Shown here piece after piece: positions 20,830-61,762 of a stretch of 64,000 nt of DNA. Each line of letters begins with the position of its first letter. Position 1 is the stretch's first letter. The notes under the pieces are model-generated. The model was given only the letters and a program-made list of their open reading frames with translations, made no database searches and had not been told where the DNA came from. The position numbers and the translations under genes were made by a program. Source of the DNA: an uncultured Eubacteriales bacterium (lineage in GTDB: Bacteria > Bacillota > Clostridia > Lachnospirales > CAMVHY01); NCBI GenBank assembly GCA_948543815.1, contig CAOVHW010000001.1:9186-73185 (forward strand). The letters run 5' to 3'.

Positions 20830-22227
20830 ATGAGCGAAAAAAATAAAAGTAGTTTCTCTGACAGATTAGGATTTGTAATGGCTGCTGCTGGTAGCGCTGT
20901 CGGTCTCGGAAATATTTGGCGTTTCCCTTATTTAGCAGCAAAAGATGGTGGCGGAATTTTTATTTTTTGCTACATCATATTGGCTGCAACTTTTGGCTTC
21001 ACTCTCCTTACTACCGAAGTTGCAATTGGCCGAAAAACAGGTAAAAGTCCATTGACAGCTTATGGCCAACTCCATAAAAAATGGGGTGGCATCGGAATTA
21101 TTACAACGCTCGTACCAATCATGATTTTGCCATATTATTGCGCAATTGGCGGCTGGATTCTGAAATATTTTGAAATATATCTAACCGGGCAAACGCAACT
21201 TGCGGCCACTGATAAATATTTTTCTGAATACATATCTAGCAACTTTCAACCCGAAATTTTTATGATTATTTTTCTTGTCATCTCCGCCGCAATAGTTTTT
21301 TTAGGCGTCGACAAAGGAATTGAACGGCTCGGCAAAATTTTAATGCCAATACTTTTAGTCATCATTACCGCAATTTCCATTTACTCAATAACTATTCGCC
21401 GCACCGATATTAACGGCATTGTACGAACAGGTATTGACGGCTTAAAGATGTACGTTATTCCCGATTTCACCGGCTTAACCTTGAAAAAATTTGTCATCAT
21501 CATGATTGACGCAATGGGTCAACTTTTCTTTTCAATCAGTGTCGCTACCGGCATCATGGTTACCTACGGCTCATATGTAAAAAAAGATGTCAACTTGATG
21601 AAATCAATCAACCAAGTTGAAATTTTTGATACAATTGTCGCTATCCTCGCCGGGCTTATGATTGTCCCAGCCGTTTACGTTTTCATGGGCACAGATGGAA
21701 TGTCGGCCGGTCCCGGCTTAATGTTCGTCTCATTGCCAAAAATTTTTTACTCAATGGGAAAAATCGGAACGCTATTCGGCGCAATATTCTTTTTGATGGT
21801 AATATTCGCCGCAATTACCTCAGCCGTATCCGTTATCGAAACTATCGTATCAAATCTTATTGACAAATTTAATTTCTCACGCACAAATAGTTGCATAATT
21901 GTGTCCTTATACGGACTTATCGGTGGAATTATTATGTGCTTGGGCTATCAACAATTATATTTTGAATTTAAATTACCAAACGGCGTTACCGGCCAAATCC
22001 TAGATATTTTCGATTATGTCAGCAACAATTGTCTAATGCCATTAGTCGCACTTTTGACTTGCATATTAATCGGATGGGTAGTCGGCCCAAAAGCTATCAT
22101 AGATGAAGTTTGCCTTGGCGGATACAAATTTAGCCGTCAAAAATTATATATCATAATGGTAAAATTTATCGCACCCGCAATGTTATTTTTCGTATTACTA
22201 CAATCGATAGGAATAATGAAACTTTAA
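20830..22227 (+). CDS. Sodium-dependent transporter, NSS/SNF family
   Basis: 465 aa with the N-terminal AAGSAVGLGNIWRFPY motif and ~12 TM helices. Confidence 0.9.
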   Translation: MSEKNKSSFSDRLGFVMAAAGSAVGLGNIWRFPYLAAKDGGGIFIFCYIILAATFGFTLLTTEVAIGRKTGKSPLTAYGQLHKKWGGIGIITTLVPIMILPYYCAIGGWILKYFEIYLTGQTQLAATDKYFSEYISSNFQPEIFMIIFLVISAAIVFLGVDKGIERLGKILMPILLVIITAISIYSITIRRTDINGIVRTGIDGLKMYVIPDFTGLTLKKFVIIMIDAMGQLFFSISVATGIMVTYGSYVKKDVNLMKSINQVEIFDTIVAILAGLMIVPAVYVFMGTDGMSAGPGLMFVSLPKIFYSMGKIGTLFGAIFFLMVIFAAITSAVSVIETIVSNLIDKFNFSRTNSCIIVSLYGLIGGIIMCLGYQQLYFEFKLPNGVTGQILDIFDYVSNNCLMPLVALLTCILIGWVVGPKAIIDEVCLGGYKFSRQKLYIIMVKFIAPAMLFFVLLQSIGIMKL

Positions 22228-22350
22228 AAATCCGTCCTTTTTTTATAAAAAAAGTATAAAAAAAATCTTTGTGTGGGTTCACACAAAGATTTTTTTGTTA
22301 AAGTTTATTTTTGTTACTTTTTCTTTTCAAAGAAAAAGTAAGGTTTTGTT
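22226..22350. repeat. Mosaic palindromic repeat locus R1 (modules C-degenerate, A, B)
   Basis: A: atctttgtgtgggttcacacaaagat. B: ttactttttcttttcaaagaaaaagtaagg. Linkers are shared with R2-R6. Confidence 0.85.
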
Positions 22351-22359
22351 AAAATAAGT

Positions 22360-23727
22360 TTAATCTATTTTTTTCAATCCAATTCCTGTTACACCACTCA
22401 AAATTGAAAAAATCGGACAAATAAAACTAAAGAATGCAAACGGTAAAAAATTTATTACGGACACACCTAAAGTATTTGCTGCAAATGCACCTTCAATTCC
22501 CCACGGTATAATGTAATTCGTTAAAGTTACACTGTCTTCGAGCGAGCGACTTAAACTTACTGGCGCCAAATTTAATTTACGATAAATCGGTTTGAATGCG
22601 TTGCCCGTCAAAATAATTGCCAAATACATTTCACCAATGAAAAGATTCATGAAAATTCCTACTAACACTGTCGCGAAAATTAAAGCTGCGGGCGTTTTTA
22701 ATTTCACAATTAATGGATTCATTGCCGTTTCAATAATTTTTAGGCGCATTAACAATCCACCTAATGCCAACGCCATTACTATTAAAAATACGCTTTCCAT
22801 CATGCTATCAATACCGCCACGACTTAAAAGTGAATCAATAATTTGATTGCCCGTTTGCAGCGCATAACCTGACTGCAAAAGATTTGCCAATTTCAAAAAA
22901 TTAAATGTTGCATCGTTAAAAAAAATTAACACAACAGAAACTACAATATTCAAAAAAAGTGTCGGTATCGCCGGCAATTTAAACCATGCGCAACCAAACA
23001 TCAATAGCACCGGAATTATCGTCCACACGCTAACATTAAAATTTGCCTCTAGCAAATTAATCATATTTTGTATCTCACACAAATCTGCCGTCGAATGTGT
23101 TTGCCCCAAAATAAAAAACAAAATCAGCGAAATGATAAAAGCCGGAACCGTTGTCCACATCATATTTTTTATATGTGCGAATAAATCTGCACCTGCAACT
23201 CCCGGAGCAAGATTAGTTGTGTCAGATATTGGCGACATTTTATCGCCAAACATTGCGCCCGAAATAATTGCGCCACAAGTCAAGGACGGATTAATTCCTA
23301 AAGTATAACCAATGCCGAGCGTTGCAATTCCAATTGTGGAAATCGTAGTCATACCACTACCAATGAATAAACCAACTAATGAGCAAACGATGAAAACGGA
23401 CGGTACAAAAAATTTGATATTGATTAACTTAAATCCCCAAAACATCAGTGATGGAATAACGCCAGCTTTCACCCATACAGCAATTAACGCGCCGATTAAA
23501 ATAAAAATAACGATTGGAATGACGGCAACTTTGATGCCGTCGACAATTCCAGAATCTATGTCGTCCCAATCATATCGACAAATATAACGGCCATAAAAAA
23601 TCAAAACGCCAATGAAAAATAATATTGGCATTTGCGGCGAAATTCCTAACCCAATTACACTGACGCCTAAAATTATTAGCATTAGCGACAAAATTAAAAT
23701 GCTTTCTGTAAAAGTAATTTCCCTCAT
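22360..23727 (-). CDS. nhaC: Na+/H+ antiporter NhaC family
   Basis: 455 aa polytopic membrane protein. It has the GAMFGDKMSPISDTTNLAP motif typical of NhaC. Confidence 0.85.
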   Translation of the reverse strand: MREITFTESILILSLMLIILGVSVIGLGISPQMPILFFIGVLIFYGRYICRYDWDDIDSGIVDGIKVAVIPIVIFILIGALIAVWVKAGVIPSLMFWGFKLINIKFFVPSVFIVCSLVGLFIGSGMTTISTIGIATLGIGYTLGINPSLTCGAIISGAMFGDKMSPISDTTNLAPGVAGADLFAHIKNMMWTTVPAFIISLILFFILGQTHSTADLCEIQNMINLLEANFNVSVWTIIPVLLMFGCAWFKLPAIPTLFLNIVVSVVLIFFNDATFNFLKLANLLQSGYALQTGNQIIDSLLSRGGIDSMMESVFLIVMALALGGLLMRLKIIETAMNPLIVKLKTPAALIFATVLVGIFMNLFIGEMYLAIILTGNAFKPIYRKLNLAPVSLSRSLEDSVTLTNYIIPWGIEGAFAANTLGVSVINFLPFAFFSFICPIFSILSGVTGIGLKKID

Positions 23728-24905: not shown

Positions 24906-25940
24906 TTAATGTTCTTGAGATCTTGGCATATTATTTAAATTAGGAATTGGAACAGGCTTTTGCGATTCAATAGCATTTAATTTGTCCAAAACTAACTTTT
25001 GTTTAAATTTCGGATAGCTATTAGCCAGATTTTTAAGGTATAAACGACAGGCTAAAATTTGGGCATCACTTAAATTATTAAACCGCTTAATATTTAATCC
25101 AAGAGATATTATATCAATTAACTCTCTAGTATCCATATCATTTATAATTGGCGGATTAAAAATATAGTCCAAATAAACTTTCTTATCATCTTCTGAATAA
25201 TTATTAGCCGGATCTTGTACATATGAAACACATTCTAAAAATTTGTCTTTGCTTAATTTAGCAAATGCACTCTTAGCAAAGAATATATCATAATCAATTA
25301 TTTCAAATAAAAGTTTAGGTTCCATAACATTAAAAACTTCTCGATTAATATTAATTAATTTAGGCACCATTATTAGCTTTTTTTCTGTTTCATTAGTTTG
25401 TACATATTTAATACAATCTAAAATTTTGTTTGCACTTAAAGCAGCTAACGTGGCTTCATTTAATAGACCACTTTCTACTATTTCAACTAAAGATTTAGCA
25501 TCTATATTATTTATAATTTGTGGATTAAGAGAGATTACTTTCTCTAAAAATTTTTTTCCTAAATTACTCCATTCCCCCGAATTTTGTATATAGGAAACGC
25601 ACTCTATAATTTTTTCGTTGCTTAATTCATTCAAGCTATCATTATTCAATAAGTCAAAATTAAGCAACATAATCAAATTGTCAGACGTTAGTCTATTTAT
25701 ACAACTCGGTTTACTATCGACTAAGTTGCTCAAGATAGTTATATCTCGTACCGGTCTCGCTCCCTTGTATCCTTGCGCAACTTCAAGGAGCTCTTGAAAT
25801 TTTTCATCATTTAAATCGACTAATGATTTAGTAGATAATGATTTATTATACAACATTTTATATAAACGTTTAGATTCCATATTATTTAAATCTTTAGACG
25901 CCGCATCATTATTTAATACAAAATTTCCATTTTCATTCAT
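24906..25940 (-). CDS. Locus B gene 4: soluble repeat protein (344 aa), 4-5 copies of a ~61 aa helical repeat; no TM hairpin
   Basis: Repeats start at LSNEKIIECVSYIQN, LSANKILDCIKYVQT, LSKDKFLECVSYVQD and LSDAQILACRLYLKN. The same repeat occurs in the 833 aa and ~1456 aa proteins. GGAGA RBS. Confidence 0.85.
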   Translation of the reverse strand: MNENGNFVLNNDAASKDLNNMESKRLYKMLYNKSLSTKSLVDLNDEKFQELLEVAQGYKGARPVRDITILSNLVDSKPSCINRLTSDNLIMLLNFDLLNNDSLNELSNEKIIECVSYIQNSGEWSNLGKKFLEKVISLNPQIINNIDAKSLVEIVESGLLNEATLAALSANKILDCIKYVQTNETEKKLIMVPKLININREVFNVMEPKLLFEIIDYDIFFAKSAFAKLSKDKFLECVSYVQDPANNYSEDDKKVYLDYIFNPPIINDMDTRELIDIISLGLNIKRFNNLSDAQILACRLYLKNLANSYPKFKQKLVLDKLNAIESQKPVPIPNLNNMPRSQEH

Positions 25941-25996
25941 AGTTAACCATCTCCTATTAATATAATTTATAATAAAGCATTTATACCAATAATTCT

Positions 25997-26025
25997 ATTA
26001 TATTACATGAAAATTAAAAAGTCAA
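25997..26025 (-). promoter_or_regulatory. Near-consensus sigma-A promoter of locus B gene 4 (TTGACT-17-TATAAT)
   Basis: The - strand reads TTGACTttttaattttcatgtaaTATAAT. The -10 plus downstream TATAATAGAATTAT box is shared with the other two locus B transcription units. Confidence 0.7.
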
Positions 26026-26149
26026 CCCATAAATCAAAAAAAATTTATATATAAAAAAATCCACTCATATAGATTTTTTTAACTGCAGCTTTTTCAAAAA
26101 GATAACACTCACAAAATAACTATAACATTTGGTAAAAAATAAGTTCAAA

Positions 26150-26180
26150 TAAAAAAAATTCCCTTTGCAATAAGGGAACT
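26150..26180 (-). terminator. Rho-independent terminator after the 833 aa gene
   Basis: On the - strand, gttccctt-attgca-aagggaa is followed by a T8 run. Confidence 0.75.
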
Positions 26181-26194
26181 TTTTTCGAAAAAAT

Positions 26195-28696
26195 TTATAT
26201 TACCTCTTGAATCATTTCATTATTTTGCATCGGTGGAATTCCATTTTGTTGATTATTTTCATGATTTTGAATTTGCATATTTTGTTGTTCTTGTACTTTT
26301 TGAACATCATTTAAATTTGGAACTAGATCATGATTTTCAACAATTACTCTATTTGATTTTTGTTTTTTATTTTTATGATTAAAAGCAAAAGTAGAAAAAC
26401 TAGCCAAACCAGTGATAGATAAACCTACTGCTACTCCCAATCCAATTCCAAAAGGTATAACGGATGCAACAAAAGTTAAAATCGCAATAGTAACTGCAGC
26501 TACTATCAAAGTAATACCTGTTATAGTAAAAGTCAAATTACAAGCTTTGTCAAAAGATTTCTCTTCATTTTGTTCAGAAATAGAAATATTTTCTTTAAAA
26601 GATTCAATTCGCATTTCTAAGGCTTCAGGATCGTTTCTAACTCCCCGCCTAATATTATCGAAAAAAGGTTTATATCTATTTCTTAATAAAATTTTTTTAC
26701 GAACACAAAAACCTTTTGCAATAAAACTAACTGCACTAGCCGCAAAGAAACTTACTAGTGAACTCAAACCAATAGCTAAAGGTATAAAAGGTACAGCAAA
26801 AGTTAAAACGGTAATAGCAATAGAAATTAATGTAAAAGCGGTACTCATTATAGTAAATGCTAAGTTATAAGATCTATTTAAAAAATTTTCTTTCAAAATT
26901 TCTAATATACATTTAGGAATTTTTTTCTTTTTTCTACTTGCATAATTTAAAAAAATATCATACCCATATTTTACATAATCCAAAAAGCTGTCACAGATAT
27001 CAGTTATCAATGAATAATTACTAAAATAATGATATTTTTCTTCCGCAGCTGACGCTAACAATAATTTAAAATATAACTTTGTCTTTTCTATATTTTGTGC
27101 ATCATCACCTATTTCACAACTTATAATAAAATCAAACATTTTTTTAAGCGTTAAATTTTCAAGATAATGTACTCTTGATAAAAAAACAAAAAACATTTTT
27201 TGCAAGATTTCAAAATTTGCACCTTTTTTCTCTATAAAAATATCAAGTAAATATTTAAACTCTTCTTCTTGATATAAATGATTAAGATTTTCATAGCTCA
27301 TATTCGGCAAATTTTCATAAATTATTTCTTTAGTAACATCATTTTTATTTTCAAATAAATACTCAAAAAATTCACTTCTCTCTGATGCTTTTTTCGCCAA
27401 GAGTTTTATATCACTTCTTTCAAAATTTATACAAATAAATTCAAAAAGAGGTCCCAACCAAACTCGATTATAACGATAATAATCTTCACCATGAATATAA
27501 TAACTTTTCTCATTAATAAAAGAAAAATCAATATAATCTTTATATATAATCATTTTTTCAAAAAATTTATGATTAAAAATATTCCGGCATGCGTCTAAAC
27601 TATGACGTTCAATATAAGCAAAAATTGAATGATTTTTTATTGAAAACAAATTAAAAAGCTCTTTTACAAAATCTCCTGGCAAATTATCATTATTTTTAAA
27701 ATACTCAATTAGCTCAATAGCTTTTCCGACATTAAACCAAGCAAAACATTTAATATCAATAAATTGATACCACTCAATAATTTTTCTACACGTTACCTTA
27801 TCTATAATCGATGGTCTAATAATTAATTTTTTAAAAGTTTCTTGTTTCACTTCTCCAGAATAATTATTATTCGGATTTTGTACGTATGCCATACAAGCTA
27901 AAATTTTTTCGTCATTTAACCACGACAGTTGCTCACTGCTAAAATAATTTATATAGTTAATTATTTTTTTTGGTTCCCATTGATTTAACTCATCCTTTGA
28001 AACATTAACAGAAGTCCGACCAGTTTCATATTTATAAGCTTTAACTTCATCCGGCCAATTTTCATAAATTTCTTCAAGGTCAGGAGATAAAATTAATTCT
28101 TCACCTACAACAATTTTATAAGCTGTCTTAAAATCAACTAAAATTACAGAGCCTAATTTTTCATCACCTAAACTCAAAAGTTGTTTTTGAGGCTTTAATA
28201 AATTACTCTGTGTAACGTGAAAATTTTCCACATTTTGTCTTGCTTCTTCGGAATATAAAAAATCATACAAATTCTTTATTATAGTTTTTATTTCTCCATA
28301 ATCGTTTTGATTAACAAAATCTTGACAAATAAATTTTATGGAAAAATCTAATATTTGCTCCGGATTTGATACTTTTTTATTTTTAGCAAGCAATGCAAAT
28401 TCAGTTTTTGCGAATTCTTCAGGCATTTTTTGAAAAATTTCTCTTAAATCTATAATTTTTATAATAATAGCTTTTCTGGCTTGAGGAAATAAATTTAAAC
28501 AATGTATCATACATGCAAAAAAAATACATTGAAAATAATGAACATGAAAAAAAGAATCGCTTAACATATCATTATTTACGATTATGTCTTTATATATTTC
28601 TGGTTGAAAATATCTTTTTTCTTTATTAATCTCGTCGAGAAACCAATATCTTATATCAGAAACATAAGCTTCTTTACCATCTTGCAGAGAGTTCAT
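26195..28696 (-). CDS. Locus B gene 3: paralogue of residues ~260-end of the giant protein, with two bilobed TM hairpins (833 aa as an ATG-initiated ORF)
   Basis: It aligns with the giant protein (DSFFHVHYFQCIFFACMIHCL vs DSFATIHYFQCIVTACIMHFL; DEKILACMAYVQNPNNNYS vs DKILQCIFYVLKPERNYT). There is no SD in front of ATG 28696. The frame stays open upstream to 28771, overlapping the end of the 239 aa ORF in the -1 frame. Confidence 0.8.
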   Translation of the reverse strand: MNSLQDGKEAYVSDIRYWFLDEINKEKRYFQPEIYKDIIVNNDMLSDSFFHVHYFQCIFFACMIHCLNLFPQARKAIIIKIIDLREIFQKMPEEFAKTEFALLAKNKKVSNPEQILDFSIKFICQDFVNQNDYGEIKTIIKNLYDFLYSEEARQNVENFHVTQSNLLKPQKQLLSLGDEKLGSVILVDFKTAYKIVVGEELILSPDLEEIYENWPDEVKAYKYETGRTSVNVSKDELNQWEPKKIINYINYFSSEQLSWLNDEKILACMAYVQNPNNNYSGEVKQETFKKLIIRPSIIDKVTCRKIIEWYQFIDIKCFAWFNVGKAIELIEYFKNNDNLPGDFVKELFNLFSIKNHSIFAYIERHSLDACRNIFNHKFFEKMIIYKDYIDFSFINEKSYYIHGEDYYRYNRVWLGPLFEFICINFERSDIKLLAKKASERSEFFEYLFENKNDVTKEIIYENLPNMSYENLNHLYQEEEFKYLLDIFIEKKGANFEILQKMFFVFLSRVHYLENLTLKKMFDFIISCEIGDDAQNIEKTKLYFKLLLASAAEEKYHYFSNYSLITDICDSFLDYVKYGYDIFLNYASRKKKKIPKCILEILKENFLNRSYNLAFTIMSTAFTLISIAITVLTFAVPFIPLAIGLSSLVSFFAASAVSFIAKGFCVRKKILLRNRYKPFFDNIRRGVRNDPEALEMRIESFKENISISEQNEEKSFDKACNLTFTITGITLIVAAVTIAILTFVASVIPFGIGLGVAVGLSITGLASFSTFAFNHKNKKQKSNRVIVENHDLVPNLNDVQKVQEQQNMQIQNHENNQQNGIPPMQNNEMIQEVI
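26381..26536 (-). other. Second bilobed hydrophobic hairpin of the 833 aa protein
   Basis: LTFTITGITLIVAAVTIAILTFVASVIPFGIGLGVAVGLSITGLASFSTFAF is followed by NHKNKKQK and a Q/N-rich tail. Confidence 0.7.
26720..26863 (-). other. First bilobed hydrophobic hairpin of the 833 aa protein
   Basis: LAFTIMSTAFTLISIAITVLTFAVPFIPLAIGLSSLVSFFAASAVSFI is followed by a basic patch (AKGFCVRKKILLRNRYK). Confidence 0.7.
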
Positions 28697-28740
28697 GGAA
28701 TCTTCTGAAAATTTTTTGGCAGCATTTACTATACATCTTT

Positions 28741-29454
28741 TTAAACTTTCTTTTTTATGTAAGGAAATTTTTCACTCAAAGCATTTAATATTTTGTCATC
28801 AATTTTAAGTTTAAATGTTTTATTTTCAATAAAAATAAATTCATTCAATAAATCCAAATTTAAAAAATCAATATCATTTTCTGTAATCGTTTCATTGCAT
28901 TGTGTTAAAAATGTCTGCGTATTCTTTGCAATATTTATTAATAAATCACCTTTAATTTTATTCAATAAAACTGGTAATCCTGCATTTAGCGGAAGATTAT
29001 AAAATTGATATTGCTTTTCATTTTCATAAAATTCAATTCCATCCCAAAACATTTTGAAAAGATTATTTTCTGAATTTCTATTAACACTATAATAATCACT
29101 ATCACCATAACCAACAGCATTTATATCAAATGTCTCACATTGTAAAAAATCCGTAGGTCTTATTTTTTTCCTGCCAATAACATTACCTAATTTATCAAGA
29201 AATTCTCTCAAAACACTTTTAGAAATTCCTGAAATTTCAGATACTTCATCAATTTGATTGCTAATATAAATATGGTAAATTTCTAACGCTCTATATGTTT
29301 GACATGTATTTAAAACTGAAACAAAAAGTCCAGTAGTTATTTGAACTACAGAAGTTACTGCAACTGTCAACATTGGCTTCCCCGAAGAGTCAATAATATA
29401 TTTTGATGTAATTGTCTCACGATTAATTATACTTTCATCTATATTTTCGTTCAC
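28741..29454 (-). CDS. Locus B gene 2: paralogue of the N-terminal ~250 aa of the giant protein (237-239 aa)
   Basis: Shared motifs are VSVLNTCQT vs VSNLNTCQT, LREFLDKLG vs LRECLEKLG, and MFWDGIEF vs NFWEFLNK. AGGAGG RBS. The GTG at 29454 has better spacing than the TTG at 29460. Confidence 0.8.
   Translation of the reverse strand: MNENIDESIINRETITSKYIIDSSGKPMLTVAVTSVVQITTGLFVSVLNTCQTYRALEIYHIYISNQIDEVSEISGISKSVLREFLDKLGNVIGRKKIRPTDFLQCETFDINAVGYGDSDYYSVNRNSENNLFKMFWDGIEFYENEKQYQFYNLPLNAGLPVLLNKIKGDLLINIAKNTQTFLTQCNETITENDIDFLNLDLLNEFIFIENKTFKLKIDDKILNALSEKFPYIKKKV
28750..28756 (-). other. A_AAA_AAG heptamer in the zero frame of the 239 aa ORF; candidate -1 frameshift or slippage site joining it to the 833 aa ORF
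   Basis: The - strand reads tac atA AAA AAG aaa gtt taa. The -1 frame reads ..AAA AAA gaa agt tta aaa aga ... tcc ATG aac, which is the 833 aa frame. Confidence 0.45.
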
Positions 29455-29534
29455 AATCAAATCCTCCTTTACAACGTAATCTATTGTATATAATTTTATT
29501 ATACTAAAAATTTCATTAAAATAAAAGAAATTTA

Positions 29535-32500
29535 TTACATTTCTTTTTGACTTAAACTATTTTCAGATTCCGGTCTATCTGTTTGTGCAAAATTTTTGAT
29601 ACGTTCTTTAATTGGTTTGCGCCAACCATATAAAACTTTTTCAGTTTTTGTATAAGTTTCTGGATCTCTTTTCATTAATTCATCATTTTTTCCTTTATCA
29701 AAAAATTTTGAAGCTAAACCAGTGCTTACTGCTCCAATAACAAATAATGCTACAGCTATACCTAATCCAATTCCAAAAGATAAAAAACCAAGTAAAGCTA
29801 AAGGCAATAGTGTAATTGAAGCTGAAACTGCAGCAATTCCTGAACTTATAAACGCTATATTACGTTTTTTGTGCAATGATTTTTCTTCTGTGTTTTCATT
29901 TTCCATTGCTACTGTTTCATTTTTACCTTCAATTTTTACATTGCTTTTATCTTCAGCTTTTCGCTTTTTCTCTTCTTCCTCATCTTTTGCTTCCATTTTT
30001 ACTTCTGATTTTACAGTTTTTTCAGTAACTTCAGATTTTTTCTTTGTTTCTATTTTTTCATCTAAATTTTTTAATAACAAATTAACATTATTTCCAAATT
30101 TTTCTATTAACGTTCTAATTTCTTCTTCTGATATAAACGACCTATATCTAACAAATAATGAATTTAATACGCTTTCTTGATTAGGCAACTTTAACAATAT
30201 TTCATTAAATCTTTTATCACTAACTGCTCGTATAACAGCACAGCTATTACTTTCAAAAGCATCTATTAAGATTTCATCAGATAAATCATCAACATATTTA
30301 TTAAAGTAGCTTATTATAATATTTAAATTATCAGGTTTAGAATTAACCAAATTTATAAAACTATCTTTACTAATCAAATTTTTTATATTTTCATTTTTAA
30401 ATTTGCATAATTTTAATAAATTATCATTATTAACTTTACTATTAATATAAGCAATCAAATTTGCTTTAAAGTTTTCATTTTGTAGCATATCAACTATTAA
30501 ATTTTCATATTCATTCAATATTTCTATAAAATCATCATCATTTGAAATATTATTAGGGAAAATAGACATAAGCTTATTTTTATAATTTTCATCTAAAATT
30601 GATAATTTCAACATTGCTTCTACTGGTAATTTTGTAAATTCTGAAGATATTACTTCATTTATTGCCTTAACAAAACTATTTTCACTTGAGTTGTCTTTTA
30701 CATATTCTATCGTTTTAAGTACATAATTACTATCCAGTAAAAAATTTTTTAATAAAGTTTTTGTTTTTGTTTTTTCTGCATCTTTGTCAAAATCAAAATA
30801 AAGTTTTGTTGCAAAAATTCTTGACTCAAAATCAAGATTATAAAAAGATTTGTTCTCAAATAATTTTTTTTCTATAAGAATTAAAAAAAATGATTTTATG
30901 TTCTCTGGCATATTATCAACTGAATAATTTTTTTGGCCAAATCTCATTAATAGTGAAAATTTACTGTCCTTTATCTTCGGAGCTATAACATTTAACAGCT
31001 CTTCATCTTTTACCATTAAATCTAACAAAATTTCATTGTTATTTATCTCATTTATAAAATCTGGACTATTTTTTAATATTTTCTGCAAAATTTTAATACC
31101 GTTATCATCTTTTTTACCATATACGAAATTCACTAAATCATTAAAGTGCATAAATTTTCCATCAATTAAATCAAAAAAATAATCAAACCTAGCATAAATT
31201 TGTTCTATTAGTACATAATTTATTGCTTGCGGTACAATTTTTAATATATATTTGGGCACCTTTGATACTTTCTCAGCAATATATTTTAAGAAATCAACAT
31301 TTTTTGCACTATTTTGGCATAAATCATTAAAATATAATTTTAAACGTTCTTGTTTTTCAAAATCATTCTCATTTATTTTGCAATATATTATAAGGTCAAA
31401 AATTTGTTTCGGTTGCATAGTTTTAAACAAATCTCTATTAAAATAAGCAGTAGCAAATACTTTTTTTAACCATTCGAATCCTATACTTTTTTTATCTAAA
31501 AAATAATTTATTAAGTCTGTAAATTTTCCTACGTTTAAATATTTTAATATTCTAGCTCCAATATAATTATAATTAGTTTCAATTTCTTCCGGCGTAAAAT
31601 ATAAAATGAATTCAGGATAATATCTTATTTTTTTCATTAAAATTGATTTTGCTAAACCAGTATCTTGATGAGTTTTATTTTCTCTTATAAACGTAATTAA
31701 TTCTCTAACTTTTTCATTCGGAAATTTTGAAATAGAACCTTCATCAACGTCTCTAAAAAACTCTAAAATATTTTTTATTTGAGCACAATTTAAAACTTTA
31801 TCACAATATAAATTCAAAAAAGGACCTCTTACTAAGCTTTGAACATTATCATTTTCTATATTACGACCAAGATAATTCAAAAAATTATTTAATAAAATAT
31901 CATTATCACCGCCACCAATCATTGATCTAAAACAATCATAACGACGCTCAAAAAATTTATCAAATTCTATAACATTCTGAAATTCTACTATTTTTGCAAA
32001 AAATTCTTCATCTCTTATAAAATTTTGCTTTACTGTATTATTATTTGTCAACAATTTAAAAACTTTTTCAGAAAGGCTAATTGGAACATTATTTCCATGT
32101 TTAATATAATTTACTAAATTAATAAGTTTATTATTATCTATATTGCAATGATTAATATCAATGTAGTCAAATAATTCAACAATTTGCTGCGCTGTTAAAG
32201 AATTAATTATATTAGAGTTAAGATTAACAAAAACTCTAAGCAAATCATTTTTTCTTTCAGCAGTATAATTTCTTTCTGGCTTTAGCACATAAAAAATACA
32301 TTGCAAAATTTTATCTGTTTTCAATGAATTTAATTGTGCAGATCTTAATAACGCAATATGCTCAACTAAATCTTCAACTGATACATTATTTATTTCTTGT
32401 CCTCTTAAACGATCTATTGTAACTTCATAATCAAATAATTCTGGATTAGAAGTATCAAAATTTGTGTAAGCATCCATAACTTCTTGTGATAAATTTAATT

Positions 32501-33905
32501 TTCTACCTGTAACAACTTCATATAATATTGGTAAAGGAACTTTTACTTCACCATTTTTCTCTATAAATAAATCTTTTGAATTTAAAAAAGTAAATTGCGT
32601 AGTATGATAATTAGTACCTGATACTACTTGTCGTGCTTCATTTGAAAATAGATCAGCATATATATTTGTTGTTGTATTTAATATTTTTTCTAAAACATTT
32701 TCTGAAATATCATCGCCACAAAATTTTTTTATAATAAACTTTACTTTTTCAGCAGGCGATAAAATTAAAGCATGTTCTGCAACTTTGAAATCATCTGAAG
32801 CTTTGAAATCATCTAATGTCATTTTTTCAAAATCACTTCTAACTTTTATAATTCTATCAATTATATTCTTTCTTGTATTAACATCTGCATCCACACTTAA
32901 AAAATGCATAATACACGCCGTGACAATACATTGAAAATAATGAATCGTAGCAAAAGAATCATTTAAAAGACCATTTTGGCTTATTTCTATTGGTTTATAA
33001 ATTTCTTCTGAAAAAAATTTATCTTTATTAAAACTATCTACAAGCGAACTAGATATCAAGTCTATATAATCTTCTATTTCTCTGCAATAATATACAAAAG
33101 CAGATACCGCGTCTTTCGTTTTATTGTTTTTAAGATGTTGCAAAATTTTTTGTGGACTAATTCGATGCGAAAGATTTTCACATAACTTATCATATATAAG
33201 TTGGCCTGTTTCATTTAATTCACCTTCCGCATCATAAATTGTAAATTCATCATCGTCATTTTTACTACCTTTACATTTTTCAATAAAAACATCTTGTTTT
33301 AAAAATTCAAAATCTGTAACTTCATAAGGTTTTTCACCTTTATTTAAAAATTCCCAAAAATTTTTTGCTAAATTTACTGTTTCTGGTTCATCCTTATCAT
33401 GTAATATGGTTTTTAAGCTATATCCTGCACTTTCACTAGAATTATCGCCCCAAATACTCATCTCATATCCAGTGTCATTAGTAAATAACCATAAAAAATT
33501 TATTTCATCGTCTCGAAGGACATCCACAAAATCTTTATCACCAAATCCATTATAATTCATGTATCTAACTGCACATTCTTTCCCCAATTTTTCTAAACAT
33601 TCTCTTAATAAAATCATCGGATTTTTTCTGTCTCTATTAAATTGACTTATGAAATAATTTAAATCGTTTTCTGAGATATCTGTTTGCCTTAAAGCATCAA
33701 TAATTCTATCTCTATTTACATTAAAAGAGTTAATACCTCTATCTTTCGCAGCATTTGTTTGGCATGTATTTAAATTTGAAACAGAATTATCATCATCTAT
33801 TGGTGTTACTGAAGTTAATGGTAAAAAATATAATGGAATTTCCCCATTTTTTCCACCTTTATAAATATCTTTATGACTAAAATGAAACTGCACTCCTCGA
33901 TTCAT
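29535..33905 (-). CDS. Locus B gene 1: giant (~1456 aa) helical-repeat protein with an acidic/lysine-rich spacer and a C-terminal bilobed TM hairpin
   Basis: The ORF is uninterrupted. The AAGGAG RBS is 8 nt from the ATG at 33905; the track's GTG at 33914 lies inside the RBS. There is no signal peptide. The hairpin is at nt 29709-29858. Confidence 0.9.
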   Translation of the reverse strand: MNRGVQFHFSHKDIYKGGKNGEIPLYFLPLTSVTPIDDDNSVSNLNTCQTNAAKDRGINSFNVNRDRIIDALRQTDISENDLNYFISQFNRDRKNPMILLRECLEKLGKECAVRYMNYNGFGDKDFVDVLRDDEINFLWLFTNDTGYEMSIWGDNSSESAGYSLKTILHDKDEPETVNLAKNFWEFLNKGEKPYEVTDFEFLKQDVFIEKCKGSKNDDDEFTIYDAEGELNETGQLIYDKLCENLSHRISPQKILQHLKNNKTKDAVSAFVYYCREIEDYIDLISSSLVDSFNKDKFFSEEIYKPIEISQNGLLNDSFATIHYFQCIVTACIMHFLSVDADVNTRKNIIDRIIKVRSDFEKMTLDDFKASDDFKVAEHALILSPAEKVKFIIKKFCGDDISENVLEKILNTTTNIYADLFSNEARQVVSGTNYHTTQFTFLNSKDLFIEKNGEVKVPLPILYEVVTGRKLNLSQEVMDAYTNFDTSNPELFDYEVTIDRLRGQEINNVSVEDLVEHIALLRSAQLNSLKTDKILQCIFYVLKPERNYTAERKNDLLRVFVNLNSNIINSLTAQQIVELFDYIDINHCNIDNNKLINLVNYIKHGNNVPISLSEKVFKLLTNNNTVKQNFIRDEEFFAKIVEFQNVIEFDKFFERRYDCFRSMIGGGDNDILLNNFLNYLGRNIENDNVQSLVRGPFLNLYCDKVLNCAQIKNILEFFRDVDEGSISKFPNEKVRELITFIRENKTHQDTGLAKSILMKKIRYYPEFILYFTPEEIETNYNYIGARILKYLNVGKFTDLINYFLDKKSIGFEWLKKVFATAYFNRDLFKTMQPKQIFDLIIYCKINENDFEKQERLKLYFNDLCQNSAKNVDFLKYIAEKVSKVPKYILKIVPQAINYVLIEQIYARFDYFFDLIDGKFMHFNDLVNFVYGKKDDNGIKILQKILKNSPDFINEINNNEILLDLMVKDEELLNVIAPKIKDSKFSLLMRFGQKNYSVDNMPENIKSFFLILIEKKLFENKSFYNLDFESRIFATKLYFDFDKDAEKTKTKTLLKNFLLDSNYVLKTIEYVKDNSSENSFVKAINEVISSEFTKLPVEAMLKLSILDENYKNKLMSIFPNNISNDDDFIEILNEYENLIVDMLQNENFKANLIAYINSKVNNDNLLKLCKFKNENIKNLISKDSFINLVNSKPDNLNIIISYFNKYVDDLSDEILIDAFESNSCAVIRAVSDKRFNEILLKLPNQESVLNSLFVRYRSFISEEEIRTLIEKFGNNVNLLLKNLDEKIETKKKSEVTEKTVKSEVKMEAKDEEEEKKRKAEDKSNVKIEGKNETVAMENENTEEKSLHKKRNIAFISSGIAAVSASITLLPLALLGFLSFGIGLGIAVALFVIGAVSTGLASKFFDKGKNDELMKRDPETYTKTEKVLYGWRKPIKERIKNFAQTDRPESENSLSQKEM
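29709..29858 (-). other. Bilobed hydrophobic hairpin of the giant protein
   Basis: IAFISSGIAAVSASITLLPLALLGFLSFGIGLGIAVALFVIGAVSTGLAS is preceded by an E/K-rich low-complexity block and followed by a 57 aa charged tail. Confidence 0.7.
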
Positions 33906-34011
33906 AAAAATCACTCCTTCGATTTTTATTTACTTCAATAATTTTATTATACATTATTTCAACGAAAAATTAAATCATAAATTAAAAAAATTTTTGTATG
34001 TAAAAAAGGTA

Positions 34012-34041
34012 TAAAAAAAATCCACATATGTGGATTTTTTT
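34012..34041. terminator. Bidirectional terminator downstream of frr
   Basis: The perfect palindrome atccacatatgtggat lies between an A8 run and a T7 run. Confidence 0.8.
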
Positions 34042-40100: not shown

Positions 40101-40103
40101 AGT

Positions 40104-40370: not shown

Positions 40371-40490
40371 TGACACGCCTCCTTTATTATGTAGTGACAA
40401 TTAAATTTATGCCAGATACATAATTTTTATGAGGCTTATATCTATAATTTTTGTATAATATCATAAAAATTTATAAGTATGAGGAACGAT

Positions 40491-45340: not shown

Positions 45341-45378
45341 AATCTCTTGCGCTATTTTTAACGTAAGAGATTTTTTTT
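45341..45378 (+). terminator. Rho-independent terminator after hydF
   Basis: The 11-bp stem aatctcttgcg / cgtaagagatt (one G-U) is followed by a T8 run. Confidence 0.8.
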
Positions 45379-45499
45379 GATTGCCTAAAACGAAATGAAT
45401 ATATTCATCACTTGACTTCCCTATAAAAACATATGTTATAAGTAATAATATTGGTATTTTTACCATAAAATTTAATTATTATTGGGAGGGTTTTAAAGT

Positions 45500-46369
45500 A
45501 TGGGAATTGGAGTAAGCAGTAACGGACCTGCTTATCAAACTAGGGAGTACAAAGATTTATCCAGGAGTGAAAAACTAATTTATAATAGTCGCTCTACAGA
45601 TGATTTTGACAGAAATATACTTCTTACTTTAAATGCAACAGGTTGTAATATATATTTTAATTTAAAAGCTAAAGAAAAAGCAGCTTTTAAGAGCTTAGAT
45701 AGAGATAATAGAATATATTTTTTAGCAATGTCAGATAGTCTTAGATCTAGATATGTTAAGTTAGAAGACGAAGGCGAAAAAGCATTCATTTTAGAAAACT
45801 ATTATTTTGATATAGACACATTTAATCGTATGTTTGTAAGTTATAGAATGGATGTTCAATATAGAAAAACCAGTGCAGTTCTTGATGAAAATAAAGCGGC
45901 TCTTGAAGAAACTACAAATAGAATTAAAAAAACTGGGGAAGAAAACACAAGAGCTTATGAGGCTTTTATGAGAAGATTTAATGGCATAGAAGATGACGTT
46001 AACGAATTAAGAGACGATGTTGATACTTTACAAACGGATATGACTAATGTGAAGAACAATGTCAATGGGTTAGCTATAAGAACTGATAATTTACGAAATA
46101 ATGTTAATGATATCCAAACACGAACAACTAACTTAGAACGTAATGTTAATAGAGTAGAAGATACTACTGATAAAAACACTGAAGAAATAAACAACATAAA
46201 AGTAAGACAAGAAGAAGATAGAAGGGAAAAAGAGGATATGAAAAATTTTCTTCAGGAGAGGTTCCATTACGGGATGAAGAAGGTGAACGAGTTGTCGAGT
46301 TCAACAAGCTCGACATCATCGGAGATACCTCTCCAGGAAATAGAGACAGAACATTCGGAGATTCTGTAA
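45500..46369 (+). CDS. Hypothetical coiled-coil protein (289 aa in the zero frame); probably the 5' part of a longer frame-split gene
   Basis: GGGAGGG RBS. It has heptad-like repeats (VNELRDDVDTLQTDMTNVKNNVNGLAIRTDNLRNNVNDIQTRTTNLERNVNRVED). Arg is encoded almost only by AGA/AGG, unlike the housekeeping genes here. Confidence 0.75.
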   Translation: MGIGVSSNGPAYQTREYKDLSRSEKLIYNSRSTDDFDRNILLTLNATGCNIYFNLKAKEKAAFKSLDRDNRIYFLAMSDSLRSRYVKLEDEGEKAFILENYYFDIDTFNRMFVSYRMDVQYRKTSAVLDENKAALEETTNRIKKTGEENTRAYEAFMRRFNGIEDDVNELRDDVDTLQTDMTNVKNNVNGLAIRTDNLRNNVNDIQTRTTNLERNVNRVEDTTDKNTEEINNIKVRQEEDRREKEDMKNFLQERFHYGMKKVNELSSSTSSTSSEIPLQEIETEHSEIL

Positions 46370-46599
46370 AAGCCTTCTTCATAAGTGTTTATGATTGGTT
46401 TGGTTATATTTTTAGTGTCATAGCCGATTGGTTTAGACGGACTTTTAGCAGACAGACCGAAGCATTAGCAGCTCCCAGTCAAATCACTCCTAATGCTCTC
46501 GACCAAAATGAAACAGAAAATAAATTAAATAAAGAAACAATCGAAAAACCTGCAATGACAAATCAAGTAGAAAATCAAACAGAAAATCATCTACCATAA
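46222..46599 (+). other. Stop-free -1-frame continuation (125 codons, no usable start codon) with a hydrophobic segment, ending inside the terminator loop
   Basis: KGKRGYEKFSSGEVPLRDEEGERVVEFNKLDIIGDTSPGNRDRTFGDSVKAFFISVYDWFGYIFSVIADWFRRTFSRQTEALAAPSQ...NHLP*. It is bounded by TAG 46219-46221 and TAA 46597-46599. Confidence 0.55.
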
Positions 46600-46620
46600 A
46601 AATTTGGAGATGATTTTTTT
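46586..46620 (+). terminator. Rho-independent terminator of the 45500 transcription unit
   Basis: The stem atcatct(a)cca / tggagatgat is followed by a T7 run. The -1-frame stop codon sits in the loop. Confidence 0.75.
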
Positions 46621-46716
46621 GTTGTATAATTACATCCTTTTTATAAATTGATTTATAAACGTCGCCATGATATTATATTTACAATATTACAACTTTATCG
46701 CAGGAGTGTTTTCCAA

Positions 46717-51601: not shown

Positions 51602-51604
51602 ATC

Positions 51605-51786
51605 TTTAACAAAAAAAGATAAAACCTTTACTTTTTTCTTTGAAAAGAAAAAAGTAAAACAATAAGCAGTTCCTTTGGAACTGCTTCATGAAAAGAAACT
51701 TTATAAAAAATCTTTGTGCGAGTGCACAAAGATTTTTTTGTTAAAATTTTTTTGGTTCTTTTTTTATAAAAAAAGAACGGTTTTTA
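51605..51786. repeat. Mosaic palindromic repeat locus R4 (B, extra hairpin, A, C)
   Basis: B: tttacttttttctttgaaaagaaaaaagtaaa. Extra hairpin: aagcagttcctttggaactgctt. A: atctttgtgcgagtgcacaaagat. C: tttggttctttttttataaaaaaagaacggttttt. Confidence 0.9.
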
Positions 51787-51861
51787 TTTCTATATTTTAC
51801 TTTTGAATACGTATTAATTTATAATAAAGTTGAAATAAAAATTTGTAAGGGGAAGATTTTT

Positions 51862-57775: not shown

Positions 57776-57908
57776 AATTAAAACCGTTCTTTTTTTTGTA
57801 AAAAAAAGAACCAAAAAAAACTTTATAAAAATCTTTGTGCAAATGCACAAAGATTTTTTGTTAAAGTTCTTTTGTTACTTTTCTTTCAAGAAAAGTAAGG
57901 TTTTTTTA
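57776..57908. repeat. Mosaic palindromic repeat locus R5 (C inverted, A, B)
   Basis: aaaaccgttcttttttttgtaaaaaaaagaaccaaa ... atctttgtgcaaatgcacaaagat ... ttacttttctttcaagaaaagtaaggttt. Confidence 0.9.
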
Positions 57909-58956: not shown

Positions 58957-58962
58957 AATTAT

Positions 58963-59240: not shown

Positions 59241-59351
59241 CGCCCTCCTTTCTTTTGAGGGTTAAGCAAGTCTCCGTTGTCCCTTTATCGCAATTGCCAT
59301 ATCTTTATTATAGCAAATTATTCACGTATTTAAAATATCACCATTTTTTTA

Positions 59352-59392
59352 TAAAAAAAGGATGCATTCTTTGTTTGCATCCTCTTTTTTTT
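59352..59392. terminator. Bidirectional terminator downstream of the TfoX-like gene
   Basis: The stem aggatgca / tgcatcct lies between an A-run and a T-run. Confidence 0.75.
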
Positions 59393-59406
59393 ATAACAAC
59401 TTTAAT

Positions 59407-59730
59407 TTATTCATCATATTTTTTTGAATTAGGTAACTCATCAAAAATTTTGTTAATCAATCCTGTTAAATATTCTTTATCATCAACATTATCCACGAGC
59501 AACATTTGTTTTGCTCCAGCATAAGGCAATTCATATTTTACATTTGACATATATGAAACTACTGACTTCACCGGTTTTACAAGAAACCGATTATCGTAAA
59601 TTCCACCAATAATTTTTCCTTTGTAGTAAATGATGTATTCTCCCATCATAGCTTTATATGAAATATCATCCAATCCACTTAATTGTTCAATGATAAAATT
59701 CAAATATTCTTTACTTGTCGCCATTACCAC
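59407..59730 (-). CDS. TfoX N-terminal domain family protein
   Basis: 107 aa. The sequence SKEYLNFIIEQLSGLDDISYKAMMGEYIIYYKGKIIGGIYDNRFLVK is typical of the TfoX/Sxy N-terminal domain. Confidence 0.75.
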   Translation of the reverse strand: MVMATSKEYLNFIIEQLSGLDDISYKAMMGEYIIYYKGKIIGGIYDNRFLVKPVKSVVSYMSNVKYELPYAGAKQMLLVDNVDDKEYLTGLINKIFDELPNSKKYDE

Positions 59731-59770
59731 AACTCCTAATCTTCAAACTCACTATCATTTATCGTATAAA

Positions 59771-61237: not shown

Positions 61238-61375
61238 CTTTTTACTTTTGTTTTTTAATCACAGTCTTTATTAATATAATAAATTTATTTTAGTAGATAA
61301 AGTAGTAGGGATTGTTGATATGTATAAAACATGTTAAAAATATCTCGTAATGATTAAGAAAGAAATTGAAAACAT

Positions 61376-61487
61376 TGTGGATAACTTCTTCAAAACTGTA
61401 ATTTAATCCACATTATACACAATTTATTTTTTTAATTGCAATTATGAACAATTTCTCAACACTTTCCTCTCTTTAATATGTTGATAA
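61376..61487. promoter_or_regulatory. Second DnaA-box cluster (upstream of lysS)
   Basis: The boxes are a perfect TGTGGATAA (61376-61384), TAATCCACA (61404-61412), TTATACACA (61413-61421) and TGTTGATAA (61479-61487). Confidence 0.5.
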
Positions 61488-61762
61488 GTTCTTTACTTTT
61501 TTCTTTGAAAAGAAAAAAGTAAAACAAAAAAGAAACTTTATATAAAAAATCTTTGTGCGCTTGCACAAAGATTTTTTAGTTAAAGTTCTTTTGTTACTTT
61601 TCTTTCAAGAAAAGTAAGGTTTAAATATAGAAATAAAAACCGTTCTTTTTTTATAAAAAAAAGAACCAAAAAAATTTTAATAAAAAAATCTTTGTGCGTT
61701 TGCACAAAGATTTTTTAGTTAAAGTTCTTTTGTTTACTTTTCTTTCAAGAAAAGTAAGGTCT
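61488..61762. repeat. Mosaic palindromic repeat locus R6 (B, A, B, C, A, B), the largest array
   Basis: It has two A modules (atctttgtgcgcttgcacaaagat; atctttgtgcgtttgcacaaagat), three B modules and one C module, in the divergent lysS / malQ intergenic region. Confidence 0.9.

Follow-up and report, generated by a model that had tools for sequence, protein, structure and literature searches.

What are the short palindromic sequences that recur in six intergenic regions of this stretch of DNA (the window, 64,000 nucleotides), and what do they do for their host, an uncultured spore-forming member of the Clostridia? A sequence-only reading had described them as a mosaic of three palindromic modules, A, B and C, resembling either the REP/BIME sequences of enterobacteria or a family of non-autonomous MITEs. 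When the window was re-examined, all modules of the six loci were present where they had been placed. We propose, with a probability of about 0.6, that they form a family of AT-rich foldback small interspersed repeats that likely function as two-way terminators and that evolve mainly via DNA exchange between copies.

The modules cannot be the product of chance. In the window, the pattern for A has five exact matches compared with 0.01 expected and the pattern for C four compared with 0 expected, and half-motifs are never found outside the elements. In the window, the only matches to a covariance model derived from 14 copies are seven elements; the six regions correspond to these seven copies:

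R1, 22229-22346, no strand: 82.6 bits in the covariance model; degenerate C arm (22230-22257), A of the GTGTG/CACAC subfamily (22259-22296) and B arm (22312-22346).
R2, 39967-40101 (covariance-model match 39969-40099), no strand: 129.4 bits; B1 (39969-39999), A (40014-40047) and B2' (40063-40099).
R3, 44020-44125, no strand: between hydG and hydF, 66.4 bits; B-arm remnant, variant central hairpin AAAAAATCACGC-ATA-GCGTGATTTTTT (44054-44080) and C' arm (44095-44125).
R4, 51621-51784 (covariance-model match 51659-51783 plus the B arm from 51621), no strand: 109.8 bits; B2 (51621-51660), D (51664-51686), A (51705-51738) and C' (51753-51784).
R5, 57780-57904 (covariance-model match 57781-57903), no strand: 112.1 bits; C (57780-57813), A (57826-57859) and B1' (57873-57904).
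R6a, 61487-61622, no strand: 121.1 bits; B2 (61487-61525), A (61544-61577) and B1' (61592-61622).
R6b, 61636-61763 (covariance-model match 61637-61762), no strand: 123.2 bits; C (61636-61668), A (61683-61716) and B1' (61731-61763).

Contrary to the free mosaic order originally proposed, the order of the modules is fixed. Every copy is a single foldback unit of 118-190 bp in which the central hairpin A, with a linker on either side, is always in the middle between two inverted terminal hairpins; its GC content is about 22% compared with 30.8% for the window. A copy thus consists of two inverted, non-identical half-units joined at a 4-nt centre, and each half-unit comprises a terminal hairpin (B1, B2 or C), a linker, sometimes a hairpin D, and one arm of A. 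The terminal hairpins (22-32 nt) have AAAACC at their outer end and lie about 65 nt from the centre on each side. B and C are homologous variants of the terminal hairpin (AAAACC-TTAC-TTTTCTT.. and AAAACC-GTTC-TTTTTTT.., respectively), and a B/C hybrid is present at L013 6891-6917. Other parts of the sequence-only reading are refined in a similar way. The extra hairpin of R4 is indeed there and recurs in seven other arms as the optional module D. The modules read as B-A-B-C-A-B in R6 are all present but belong to two elements in tandem, R6a and R6b, with the junction sequence AAATATAGAAAT. The half B of R3 is also present and marks a deletion derivative, in which the B arm is 31 nt shorter than in a second lineage of ~95% identity. 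By contrast, the GTGTG/CACAC stem of R1, previously attributed to drift, defines a recurrent subfamily with three more copies in the flanks of the window. In R4, the left flank (51603-51620) is linker-like and a vestige of further element sequence, and the right flank (51785-51810) consists of ATTTCTATATTT and a truncated B, the same junction as in R6a/R6b.

With the copies aligned arm to arm, the two arms of a copy are 53-81% identical, and the perfect central palindrome measures 15-16 bp. The arms are of unlike type (B1/B2, B1/C or B2/C) in 27-28 of 28 copies, a rule that may arise because long perfect palindromes are avoided or because the mechanism of mobilisation is asymmetric. Single-stranded RNA or DNA of either strand folds into a closing stem with three (or four) hairpins, e.g. 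-52.7 kcal/mol (z -9.3) for R2 as RNA and -36.8 kcal/mol (z -7.7) for R5 as DNA. Compensatory changes in the stems are expected in any DNA palindrome and, therefore, are no proof that selection acts on the RNA.

The dispersed, multi-copy intergenic family of palindromic modules with conserved linkers that had been postulated extends beyond the window: the covariance model detected three further copies within 10 kb on either side and, in a conspecific, ~95%-identical MAG, 20 spread over 10 contigs, the latter a biased sample because these copies were picked up via the exact A pattern. The source strain carries 10 copies in about 84 kb, and several copies are decaying (R1, R3, L004 4554-4682 and L007). 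The family has been seen in a single species-level lineage only. In ~93 kb of genus-level relatives, the covariance model found no copy, and the hydG-hydF spacer of these relatives is empty and 46 nt long compared with 145-176 nt here. Thus, the family probably expanded after the split from the sampled genus-level relatives. Viral contigs and a phage search gave no match to the family, and a plasmid search gave one weak, short match. Matches in JGI metagenomes were unrelated and due to chance, and the sequence at 59329-59363 that resembles C is one of the ordinary terminators and not a family member. Full-text searches of a collection of papers on REPIN/RAYT in Firmicutes and on MITE-type terminators in Clostridia returned no comparable family.

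What might such an element do? A has a 10-bp stem with four GC pairs and a 4-nt loop (-12.6 kcal/mol), followed on both strands by 5-8 T in the 8 nt downstream and preceded by an A-run of at least 4. It is built like the ordinary bidirectional terminators of the window, and its flanks (AAAAAATC...GATTTTTT) resemble those of ordinary terminators of the genome, e.g. at 34015-34040. Of the eight ordinary bidirectional terminators tested, one near 59345 is about as strong as A, and the other seven are weaker (-4.6 to -10 kcal/mol). A thus has the design of a bidirectional intrinsic terminator; judged by its anatomy and position, a hairpin of this A-run/10-bp stem/T-run type should terminate transcription entering from either side. 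The T-tails of the terminal hairpins point in the outward direction only (G-TTTT); the distal terminal hairpin could act as a back-up terminator, and the proximal one would stay at the 3' end of the transcript, possibly blocking exonucleases. A consensus terminator scanner flagged only some copies, probably because it prolongs stems into the A/T runs.

All 30 copies are intergenic, with none inside an ORF. The 23 classifiable copies lie between convergent (10), tandem (10) or divergent (3) genes, and convergent junctions are enriched, making up 7/17 of those with an element compared with 14/100 of those without (odds ratio 4.3, P = 0.014). Between convergent genes, the element spans the gap from stop to stop with a slack of at most 14 nt. 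The gene contexts originally assigned hold, with R1, R2 and R5 between convergent genes, R3 and R4 between co-directional genes, and R6 between the divergent lysS and malQ; Pfam also confirms the identities of HydG and HydF. For instance, R1 fills the gap between the stops of genes for an SNF symporter (ending at 22227, +) and an NhaC antiporter (ending at 22360, -), and R5 lies between the stops of dnaX (57773, +) and lepB (57918, -). At R2, the TAA stop of a GH18/YaaH-like gene (39967-39969) falls within the conserved terminus GATAAAACC, and the stop of spoIIID (40104-40106, - strand) lies 3 nt past the other end. The flanking genes are housekeeping genes, e.g. gap, dnaK, ffh, ispH-rpsA and plsX. 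R6 is flanked by divergent promoters and lies clear of the best promoter-like sites of either gene; R3 is located within a likely hydE-G-F operon.

At R6 and R3, a strong terminator is not obviously useful; a tolerated insertion fits as well as a function. Could the repeats, then, be a purely selfish non-autonomous transposon (MITE or REPIN-like) that has no function for the host, is found where insertions are tolerated and contains a terminator-like hairpin only incidentally? The copies in the divergent promoter region and within the hyd cluster agree with this idea, as do the confinement to a single species-level lineage, the high density and the tandem and decaying copies, and the same argument has been applied to SPRITE, BOX and RUP (PMC3049150). 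The MITE assignment made earlier also agrees with the whole element being an imperfect inverted repeat shorter than about 300 bp with no ORFs called inside, but the hallmarks of movement were sought without success. Direct repeats of at least 2 nt flank 5/23 copies compared with 3.7 expected from shuffled flank pairs, a test in which the element boundaries are somewhat uncertain and a TA- or T-type duplication is possible in a 70% AT genome. Across about 10% of the genome, no transposase, RAYT or Y1_Tnp Pfam match was found in the about 50 ORFs of the window, the genes called in the ±10 kb flanks or 20 ORFs adjacent to copies in the MAG. All four sites that can be compared between the two ~95% lineages (R2, R3, R5 and R6) are occupied in both, which lends no support to recent transposition. 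With all four sites occupied and neither a target-site duplication nor a cognate transposase detected, mobility in the strict sense is putative. Moreover, an alignment of half-units shows that conservation peaks in the A-run/stem/T-run core and not at the termini, which is unusual for a transposase substrate. Overall, we consider a purely selfish element unlikely.

In the same comparison, the composition and orientation of the arms vary between strains. R2 is flipped between the lineages, with two alleles in the population; on the GH18 side, one lineage has a B1 arm and another a C arm; at R5 and R6a, an arm has been replaced and the loop inverted. The flanks of these exchanged arms and loops differ by only about 5% between strains. 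Within the window, the right arm of R3 (44073-44128) and an arm of R4 (51731-51786) are 100% identical over 56 nt; the loci are 7.6 kb apart. Other copies were duplicated along with the 3' ends of SLH genes that are paralogous, the only long repeats among the window and 14 MAG loci. At present, the repeat evolves chiefly through DNA exchange among its copies, by way of arm swaps, flips of whole elements and of loops, tandem duplication, deletion and co-duplication with paralogous genes. Rearrangement extends to the flanks: in the other lineage, an F153-element-spoIIID junction, confirmed by independent contigs of 35-76 kb, fuses the flanks of two different copies that are about 46 kb apart in this strain. 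This strain-level synteny break, which involves the dnaN-recF-gyrB block, falls exactly in a copy; no element is present at the second breakpoint.

These exchanges also suit an explanation without any mobility, in which gene conversion and ectopic recombination homogenise host terminator cassettes and copy them among 3' intergenic regions, while segmental duplication supplies more copies. Recombination would then act via the shared hairpins flanked by A/T runs. The arms and loops exchanged or flipped within little-diverged flanks, the identical 56-nt arms, the co-duplication with SLH genes and the match of the A flanks to ordinary terminators can all be read in this way. On the other hand, a defined unit is suggested by the outer termini, which are conserved as AAAACC/GGTTTT and, in several copies, as GATAAAACC. 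Because recombination requires pre-existing homology, it cannot seed a 130-bp unit at about 30+ unrelated intergenic sites or in the 46-nt hydG-hydF spacer. Thus, this explanation appears quite doubtful to us.

A very improbable alternative is that the copies form an array of protein-binding sites or RNA genes, serving as DNA-uptake signals, as genes for small RNAs or as operators bound by a regulator or nucleoid protein. The dyad TTGTGC-N4-GCACAA within A and the very stable folds of the elements would be in line with this, and BIMEs bind IHF and gyrase (PMC2817692). But half-sites never occur alone or within genes, which is not like uptake signals, and the copies are located at 3' ends and not at promoters. 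Rfam returned no family above the threshold, only generic sub-threshold hairpin matches on both strands, and the elements contain no convincing internal promoter.

Returning to foldback repeats with a terminator core, a more speculative reading would account for the unlike arms. Rather improbably, the family could be the substrate of an unrecognised, hairpin-specific DNA enzyme of Clostridia that recognises the terminal hairpins and requires two unlike ends. It might be a single-strand transposase, of the HUH/Y1 type or another, or else a structure-specific recombinase. Its action would explain together why unlike arms are near-obligate, why whole elements flip while staying at their sites and why target duplications are missing. 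One possible lead is that the TTAC paired at the base of the B hairpins matches the target tetranucleotide of IS608.

The repeat family joins the REPIN/BIME/SPRITE/BOX-like small interspersed repeats as a new example. As in the REPINs of Pseudomonas fluorescens and others, short inverted palindromes surround a spacer in a foldback unit of about 90-130 bp that is extragenic, occurs in tandem arrays and differs between close strains; the A and T runs flanking REPINs have been interpreted as co-option for termination (PMC3337134, PMC3116915). However, the GC-rich REPs bear an unpaired GTAG or CGTC tag at one end, while the hairpins here are AT-rich, lack such a tag and have TTAC/GTAA (or GTTC/GAAC) base-paired in the stem (PMC3733652). 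The two arms of a REPIN are always of one REP group (PMC3337134), while arms here are almost always unlike; the REPIN spacer is the least conserved part, while the centre is the most conserved here; and REPINs have a cognate RAYT, typically single-copy and REP-flanked. The likeness to REP/BIME noted earlier thus applies to the architecture of inverted, non-identical hairpins with conserved linkers and not to the tag. BIMEs similarly contain palindromic units of different types in alternating orientation with conserved linker motifs, are located in 3' intergenic regions and vary between strains (PMC2817692), and they pair unlike units (Y and Z). They differ in forming open-ended Y/Z arrays instead of a fixed three-hairpin unit with an intrinsic-terminator core, have no sequence relation to the family and occur in another phylum.

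The pneumococcal SPRITE is also AT-rich, about 100-130 bp long and from a Firmicute, with a terminator-like stem, a T-rich tract and AAAA/TTTT-type ends; it lies near CDS 3' ends with strong enrichment between convergent genes, and neither a TSD nor a cognate IS is established. But SPRITE is directional, with a single long 18-bp duplex and then a U-rich tract, while the element here, compared by architecture, is symmetric with three hairpins, variant arms and a bidirectional design; given these differences, sequence homology is unlikely. BOX of S. pneumoniae (boxA-boxB(n)-boxC) is modular as well, with ends that pair mutually and an optional or variable internal module, boxB, which D resembles and which varies without disturbing the remaining fold; by contrast, TIRs, TSDs and a suspected partner IS are features of BOX, which does not resemble a terminator and whose individual modules are not palindromic in the manner seen here (PMC3049150). 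Finally, foldback MITEs of the ERIC and Correia type, likewise imperfect palindromes (about 100-160 bp) located in intergenic regions that are transcribed, can influence termination, RNA processing and stability, but have TA target duplications and defined TIRs (PMC3184786).

The family is a well-resolved case from an uncultured low-GC Clostridia lineage in a class of repeats so far described mostly in Proteobacteria and streptococci. Many independent short-read contigs terminate within copies, and the repeats explain why assemblies and MAGs of this species break recurrently at the same intergenic points. Copies also coincide with the break in synteny between strains that involves the dnaN-recF-gyrB block, and they mark probable ends of transcription units in the genome. 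With about 35 bp for A and about 130 bp for the full unit, they offer a compact, symmetric natural design for predicted bidirectional termination. Were a hairpin-specific enzyme to act on them, the family would parallel the REPIN-RAYT system in a Gram-positive, AT-rich form and would, in addition, distribute portable two-way terminators.

The repeats in the six intergenic regions of the window (R1 to R6) are real and belong to a family of foldback small interspersed repeats with a fixed architecture. Direct reading of the sequence recovered every module (A, B and C) where the sequence-only reading had placed it, and pattern searches with regular expressions counted six canonical A hairpins and one with a variant core, eight B and five C, all of them intergenic, for module counts expected by chance at ≤0.01 in this window with a GC content of 30.8%. 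The proposal that the three modules form a free mosaic did not hold. When each copy was split at the centre of A and both halves were written from the outside inwards, A was central in every copy, and a terminal hairpin lay about 20 nt from it on each side, the two in inverted orientation. Three related forms of this hairpin occur, and each has a characteristic linker:

B1, AAAACC-TTAC-TTTTCTT-GA-AAGAAAA-GTAA, linker ..CAAAAGAACTTTAAC
B2, with a longer T-run, linker ..AACAAAAAAGAAACTTTAT
C, AAAACC-GTTC-TTTTTTT-AT-AAAAAAA-GAAC, linker ..CAAAAAAATTTTAAT

Because the changes that separate B from C are paired (compensated), and because a B/C hybrid hairpin is present at 6891-6917 of locus L013, these forms are variants of one module. 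R6 (lysS/malQ) is a tandem pair of complete elements, R6a and R6b. Seven other arms contain the additional hairpin seen in R4, CATAAGC-stem-loop-stem-GCTTCATGAAA; their stems differ in sequence, mostly by compensated changes, and this hairpin is a fourth module, D, whose presence is optional. Compared with its orthologue in a lineage about 95% identical to the window (the ~95% lineage), the R3 (hydG-hydF) copy has lost 31 nt, which accounts for its "half B"; the GTGTG/CACAC stem of A in R1 (SNF symporter/NhaC) was found in three further copies, and one 56-nt arm is identical between R3 and R4.

On either strand, the predicted fold consists of a closing stem, AAAACC/GGTTTT, and three hairpins, or four with D (-29 to -62 kcal/mol), and the consensus structure of the alignment has the same three hairpins as the folds of single copies. 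For R2 (GH18/spoIIID) the RNA fold has an energy of -52.7 kcal/mol (z = -9.3), and for R5 (dnaX/lepB) the DNA fold has one of -36.8 kcal/mol (z = -7.7). In copies armed with B1 and B2, one long foldback competes with the cloverleaf (R2 centroid); in copies armed with B and C, the cloverleaf dominates (R5).

The two arms of a copy are almost always unlike. Nine copies are B1/C, eight B2/C and seven B1/B2, with a single ambiguous B/B, and three extra copies in the flanks of the window are also heterotypic. With arm types combining at random, at the frequencies seen here, roughly one copy in three would be expected to be homotypic, and the heterotypic excess has a P of roughly 0.006, allowing for the non-independence of orthologous and paralogous copies. 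The arms of a copy are 53-81% identical and the central perfect palindrome spans 15-16 bp. Long perfect palindromes are unstable in bacteria. We suggest that the unlike arms reflect either selection against such palindromes or an asymmetric mechanism.

The modules are not confined to the window, and the dispersal proposed for them is borne out by copies elsewhere. When one genome per species was scanned with an exact pattern, a MAG (CANEHT01, 'uncultured Clostridia') that is ~95% identical to the window over shared stretches accounted for 14 loci; the only other matches were in an unrelated Clostridia MAG and at one site due to chance. A covariance model built from 14 copies found exactly seven copies in the window, 20 in the MAG loci and three more in the window strain within 10 kb on either side, so that about 84 kb hold 10 copies. 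One ENA contig matches the window at 100% identity, and independent short-read contigs often end inside copies: five stop at window position 39989, six stop 29-34 nt beyond spoIIID, one stops in A downstream of the GH18 gene, and one 6.3-kb contig spans exactly R3 to R4. Homologues of HydF are 95-96% identical within the same species cluster, and identity then drops to 71-73%. In genus-level relatives, mnmA-hydE-hydG-hydF is syntenic and the hydG-hydF spacer measures 46 nt and lacks an element, while this spacer is 145 nt in the window strain and 176 nt in the ~95% lineage. No member of the family was detected in the loci of these relatives by blastn-short, repeat finding or the covariance model (93 kb for the model). 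The repeat family is lineage-restricted.

The sequence-only reading had looked to strain comparisons for presence or absence of copies. All four comparable sites are filled in both ~95% lineages, and no empty site was seen within the species; what differs is their content. R2 is flipped as a whole element (B1-A(AAAC)-B2' versus B2-A(GTTT)-B1'), both alleles of its spoIIID-proximal arm occur in independent assemblies, and the GH18-proximal arm is B1 in the window strain and C in another MAG. R5 is C-A-B1' in the window strain versus B2-A*-C' in the ~95% lineage, where the stem is ATGC/GCAT through compensated changes, and R6a has B2 versus C with the loop inverted; loop orientation is independent of arm orientation. 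Some copies arose by co-duplication with the 3' ends of paralogous SLH genes. These SLH/DUF6273 surface-protein genes (L006 2849-3434, L008 2285-3075, L009 251-831 and L049 2372-3153) have 3' ends that are 83-96% identical including the downstream element, pointing to segmental duplication of gene end plus repeat. Apart from these gene ends, no other long repeats were found among the loci.

One synteny break is located exactly in a copy. To the left of the R2 element, the ~95% lineage has an inverted F153-greA-dnaN-recF-gyrB block instead of the GH18 gene, and in the window strain this block adjoins element X, a copy about 46 kb away (L049 3014-3151); homology to each parental flank ends at the element boundary. 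Misassembly of the MAG could have generated such a junction, but independent contigs of 35-76 kb share it, and it is therefore not an assembly error. The arm types seen are not those that a single-crossover inversion between X and R2 would produce, and at the second breakpoint, after gyrB, there is nothing but an ordinary terminator, with no element. The rearrangement was therefore more complex than one repeat-mediated inversion. As regards the dnaA region itself, dnaA lies ~23 kb from dnaN-recF-gyrB in the window strain (window 18093-19403, L049 4430-8496) and dnaN does not come after it; the ~95% lineage has the dnaN block in inverted orientation, directly beside spoIIID. GC skew was uninformative for placing an origin near dnaA.

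The strains and their relatives also differ in gene content. A small TfoX_N-like ORF (59407-59730, minus strand; region 59370-59758), adjoined by an ordinary bidirectional terminator (59340-59400), is present in the window strain; MAG CANEHT01 lacks it, with about 90 nt at this position. A 289-aa ORF without Pfam domain downstream of hydF (45376-46638) is shared with a genus-level relative (L030, 286 aa) and absent from the ~95% lineage (L014, L043). A Peptidase_C39_2 gene between spoIIID and mnmA is present in the ~95% lineage and in the relative L027 and missing from the window strain (window 40438-40490; L014 1147-1998; L053 6962-7756). A low-GC block (24-26%) at 24906-33914 has ORFs of 833 and 1459 aa with internal paralogous segments and no credible Pfam domains; it may encode envelope proteins and is fast-evolving, since 31695-32279 is only 88% identical to the ~95% lineage. 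Three tandem paralogous ORFs without Pfam domain (10622-11713, 11933-13288 and 13497-14858; region 10523-14971) have repeated upstream regions (82% and 65% identical) and near-identical downstream terminator regions (11733-11834 versus 14870-14971, 91%).

Several other origins were considered and rejected. A DNA-uptake signal is not consistent with half-motifs of 8-11 nt that are confined to elements, never single and never in genes. At the Rfam gathering threshold only tRNA-Pro was found in the window, which argues against a known RNA family, and at E ≤ 1 only generic sub-threshold hairpin or attenuator matches appeared, on both strands. A phage or plasmid origin found no backing: nothing matched in viral contigs or phages, and the sole plasmid match was weak and 32 nt long. 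Three JGI metagenome matches, all in GC-rich unrelated contexts, and a Verrucomicrobia match (L011) are due to chance. CRP/Rex-like operator dyads are disfavoured by the location of copies at 3' ends and, presumably, by a half-site spacing that does not fit such operators. Two marks of mobility were sought and not found: target-site duplications gave no signal above shuffled flanks, and Pfam found no transposase or RAYT in the window, the flanks or 20 ORFs beside the MAG copies. In the other Clostridia MAG, CALWAB01 (L005 287-411 and 2554-2662), an A-like hairpin follows a different repeated sequence, and this locus was not accepted as a family member. Its hairpin, AAAAAATCTTTGTGC-GAAA-GCACAAAGATTTTTT, is preceded by a ~60-nt sequence that occurs twice, in inverted orientation, with about 2.2 kb between the copies; this sequence may represent the terminal part of a repeated RNA gene.

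Known repeat families share parts of this design. REPINs likewise form tandem arrays and fold into a hairpin from two palindromes inverted about a spacer (PMC3337134), BIMEs pair unlike units with conserved linkers (PMC2817692), SPRITEs are AT-rich and terminator-like with a bias to convergent genes and without target duplication or partner IS (PMC3049150), and BOX elements have an optional internal module. The GTAG/CGTC tag of REPs (PMC3733652) is absent here, the same-group arm rule of REPINs is broken, and the target duplication of MITEs is not seen. The less usual features are the near-obligate unlike arms and the frequent exchange of arms and orientation at fixed sites.

Design and position point to a role in termination. 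Module A has a 10-bp stem with four GC pairs, a 4-nt loop and a folding energy of -12.6 kcal/mol, and on both strands at least four A precede the stem and 5-8 T lie in the 8 nt after it. This is the layout of the ordinary bidirectional terminators of the window (e.g. 8170, 34015 and 47938); of eight tested, the one near 59345 is about as strong and the other seven are weaker (-4.6 to -10 kcal/mol). These assessments use explicit energy and T-run measurements in place of a consensus terminator scanner, which missed most A hairpins, probably because the A and T runs are paired into the stem and leave no T tail. No copy lies inside an ORF, and the genes beside copies are ordinary housekeeping or sporulation genes. 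The 23 classifiable copies are in convergent (10), tandem (10) and divergent (3) contexts; in a non-redundant set, 7 of 17 junctions with an element are convergent versus 14 of 100 without (odds ratio 4.3, P = 0.014). Between convergent genes, the element occupies the whole gap between both stop codons, and at R2 the TAA of the GH18 gene is inside the recurrent GATAAAACC terminus. Because the terminal hairpins have a T-rich tail in the outward reading only and A reads both ways, a transcript arriving from either side would first encounter a hairpin that lacks a U-tract, next the canonical terminator A and last a second terminator-like hairpin. We therefore suggest that the element has a built-in bidirectional terminator function. 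The A/T flanks of REPINs have been interpreted as terminator co-option (PMC3337134), and REPs in the 3'UTRs of E. coli have been described as combined terminators and stabilisers (bioRxiv 10.64898/2026.03.23.713779); the latter role fits the function proposed here for the repeat family.
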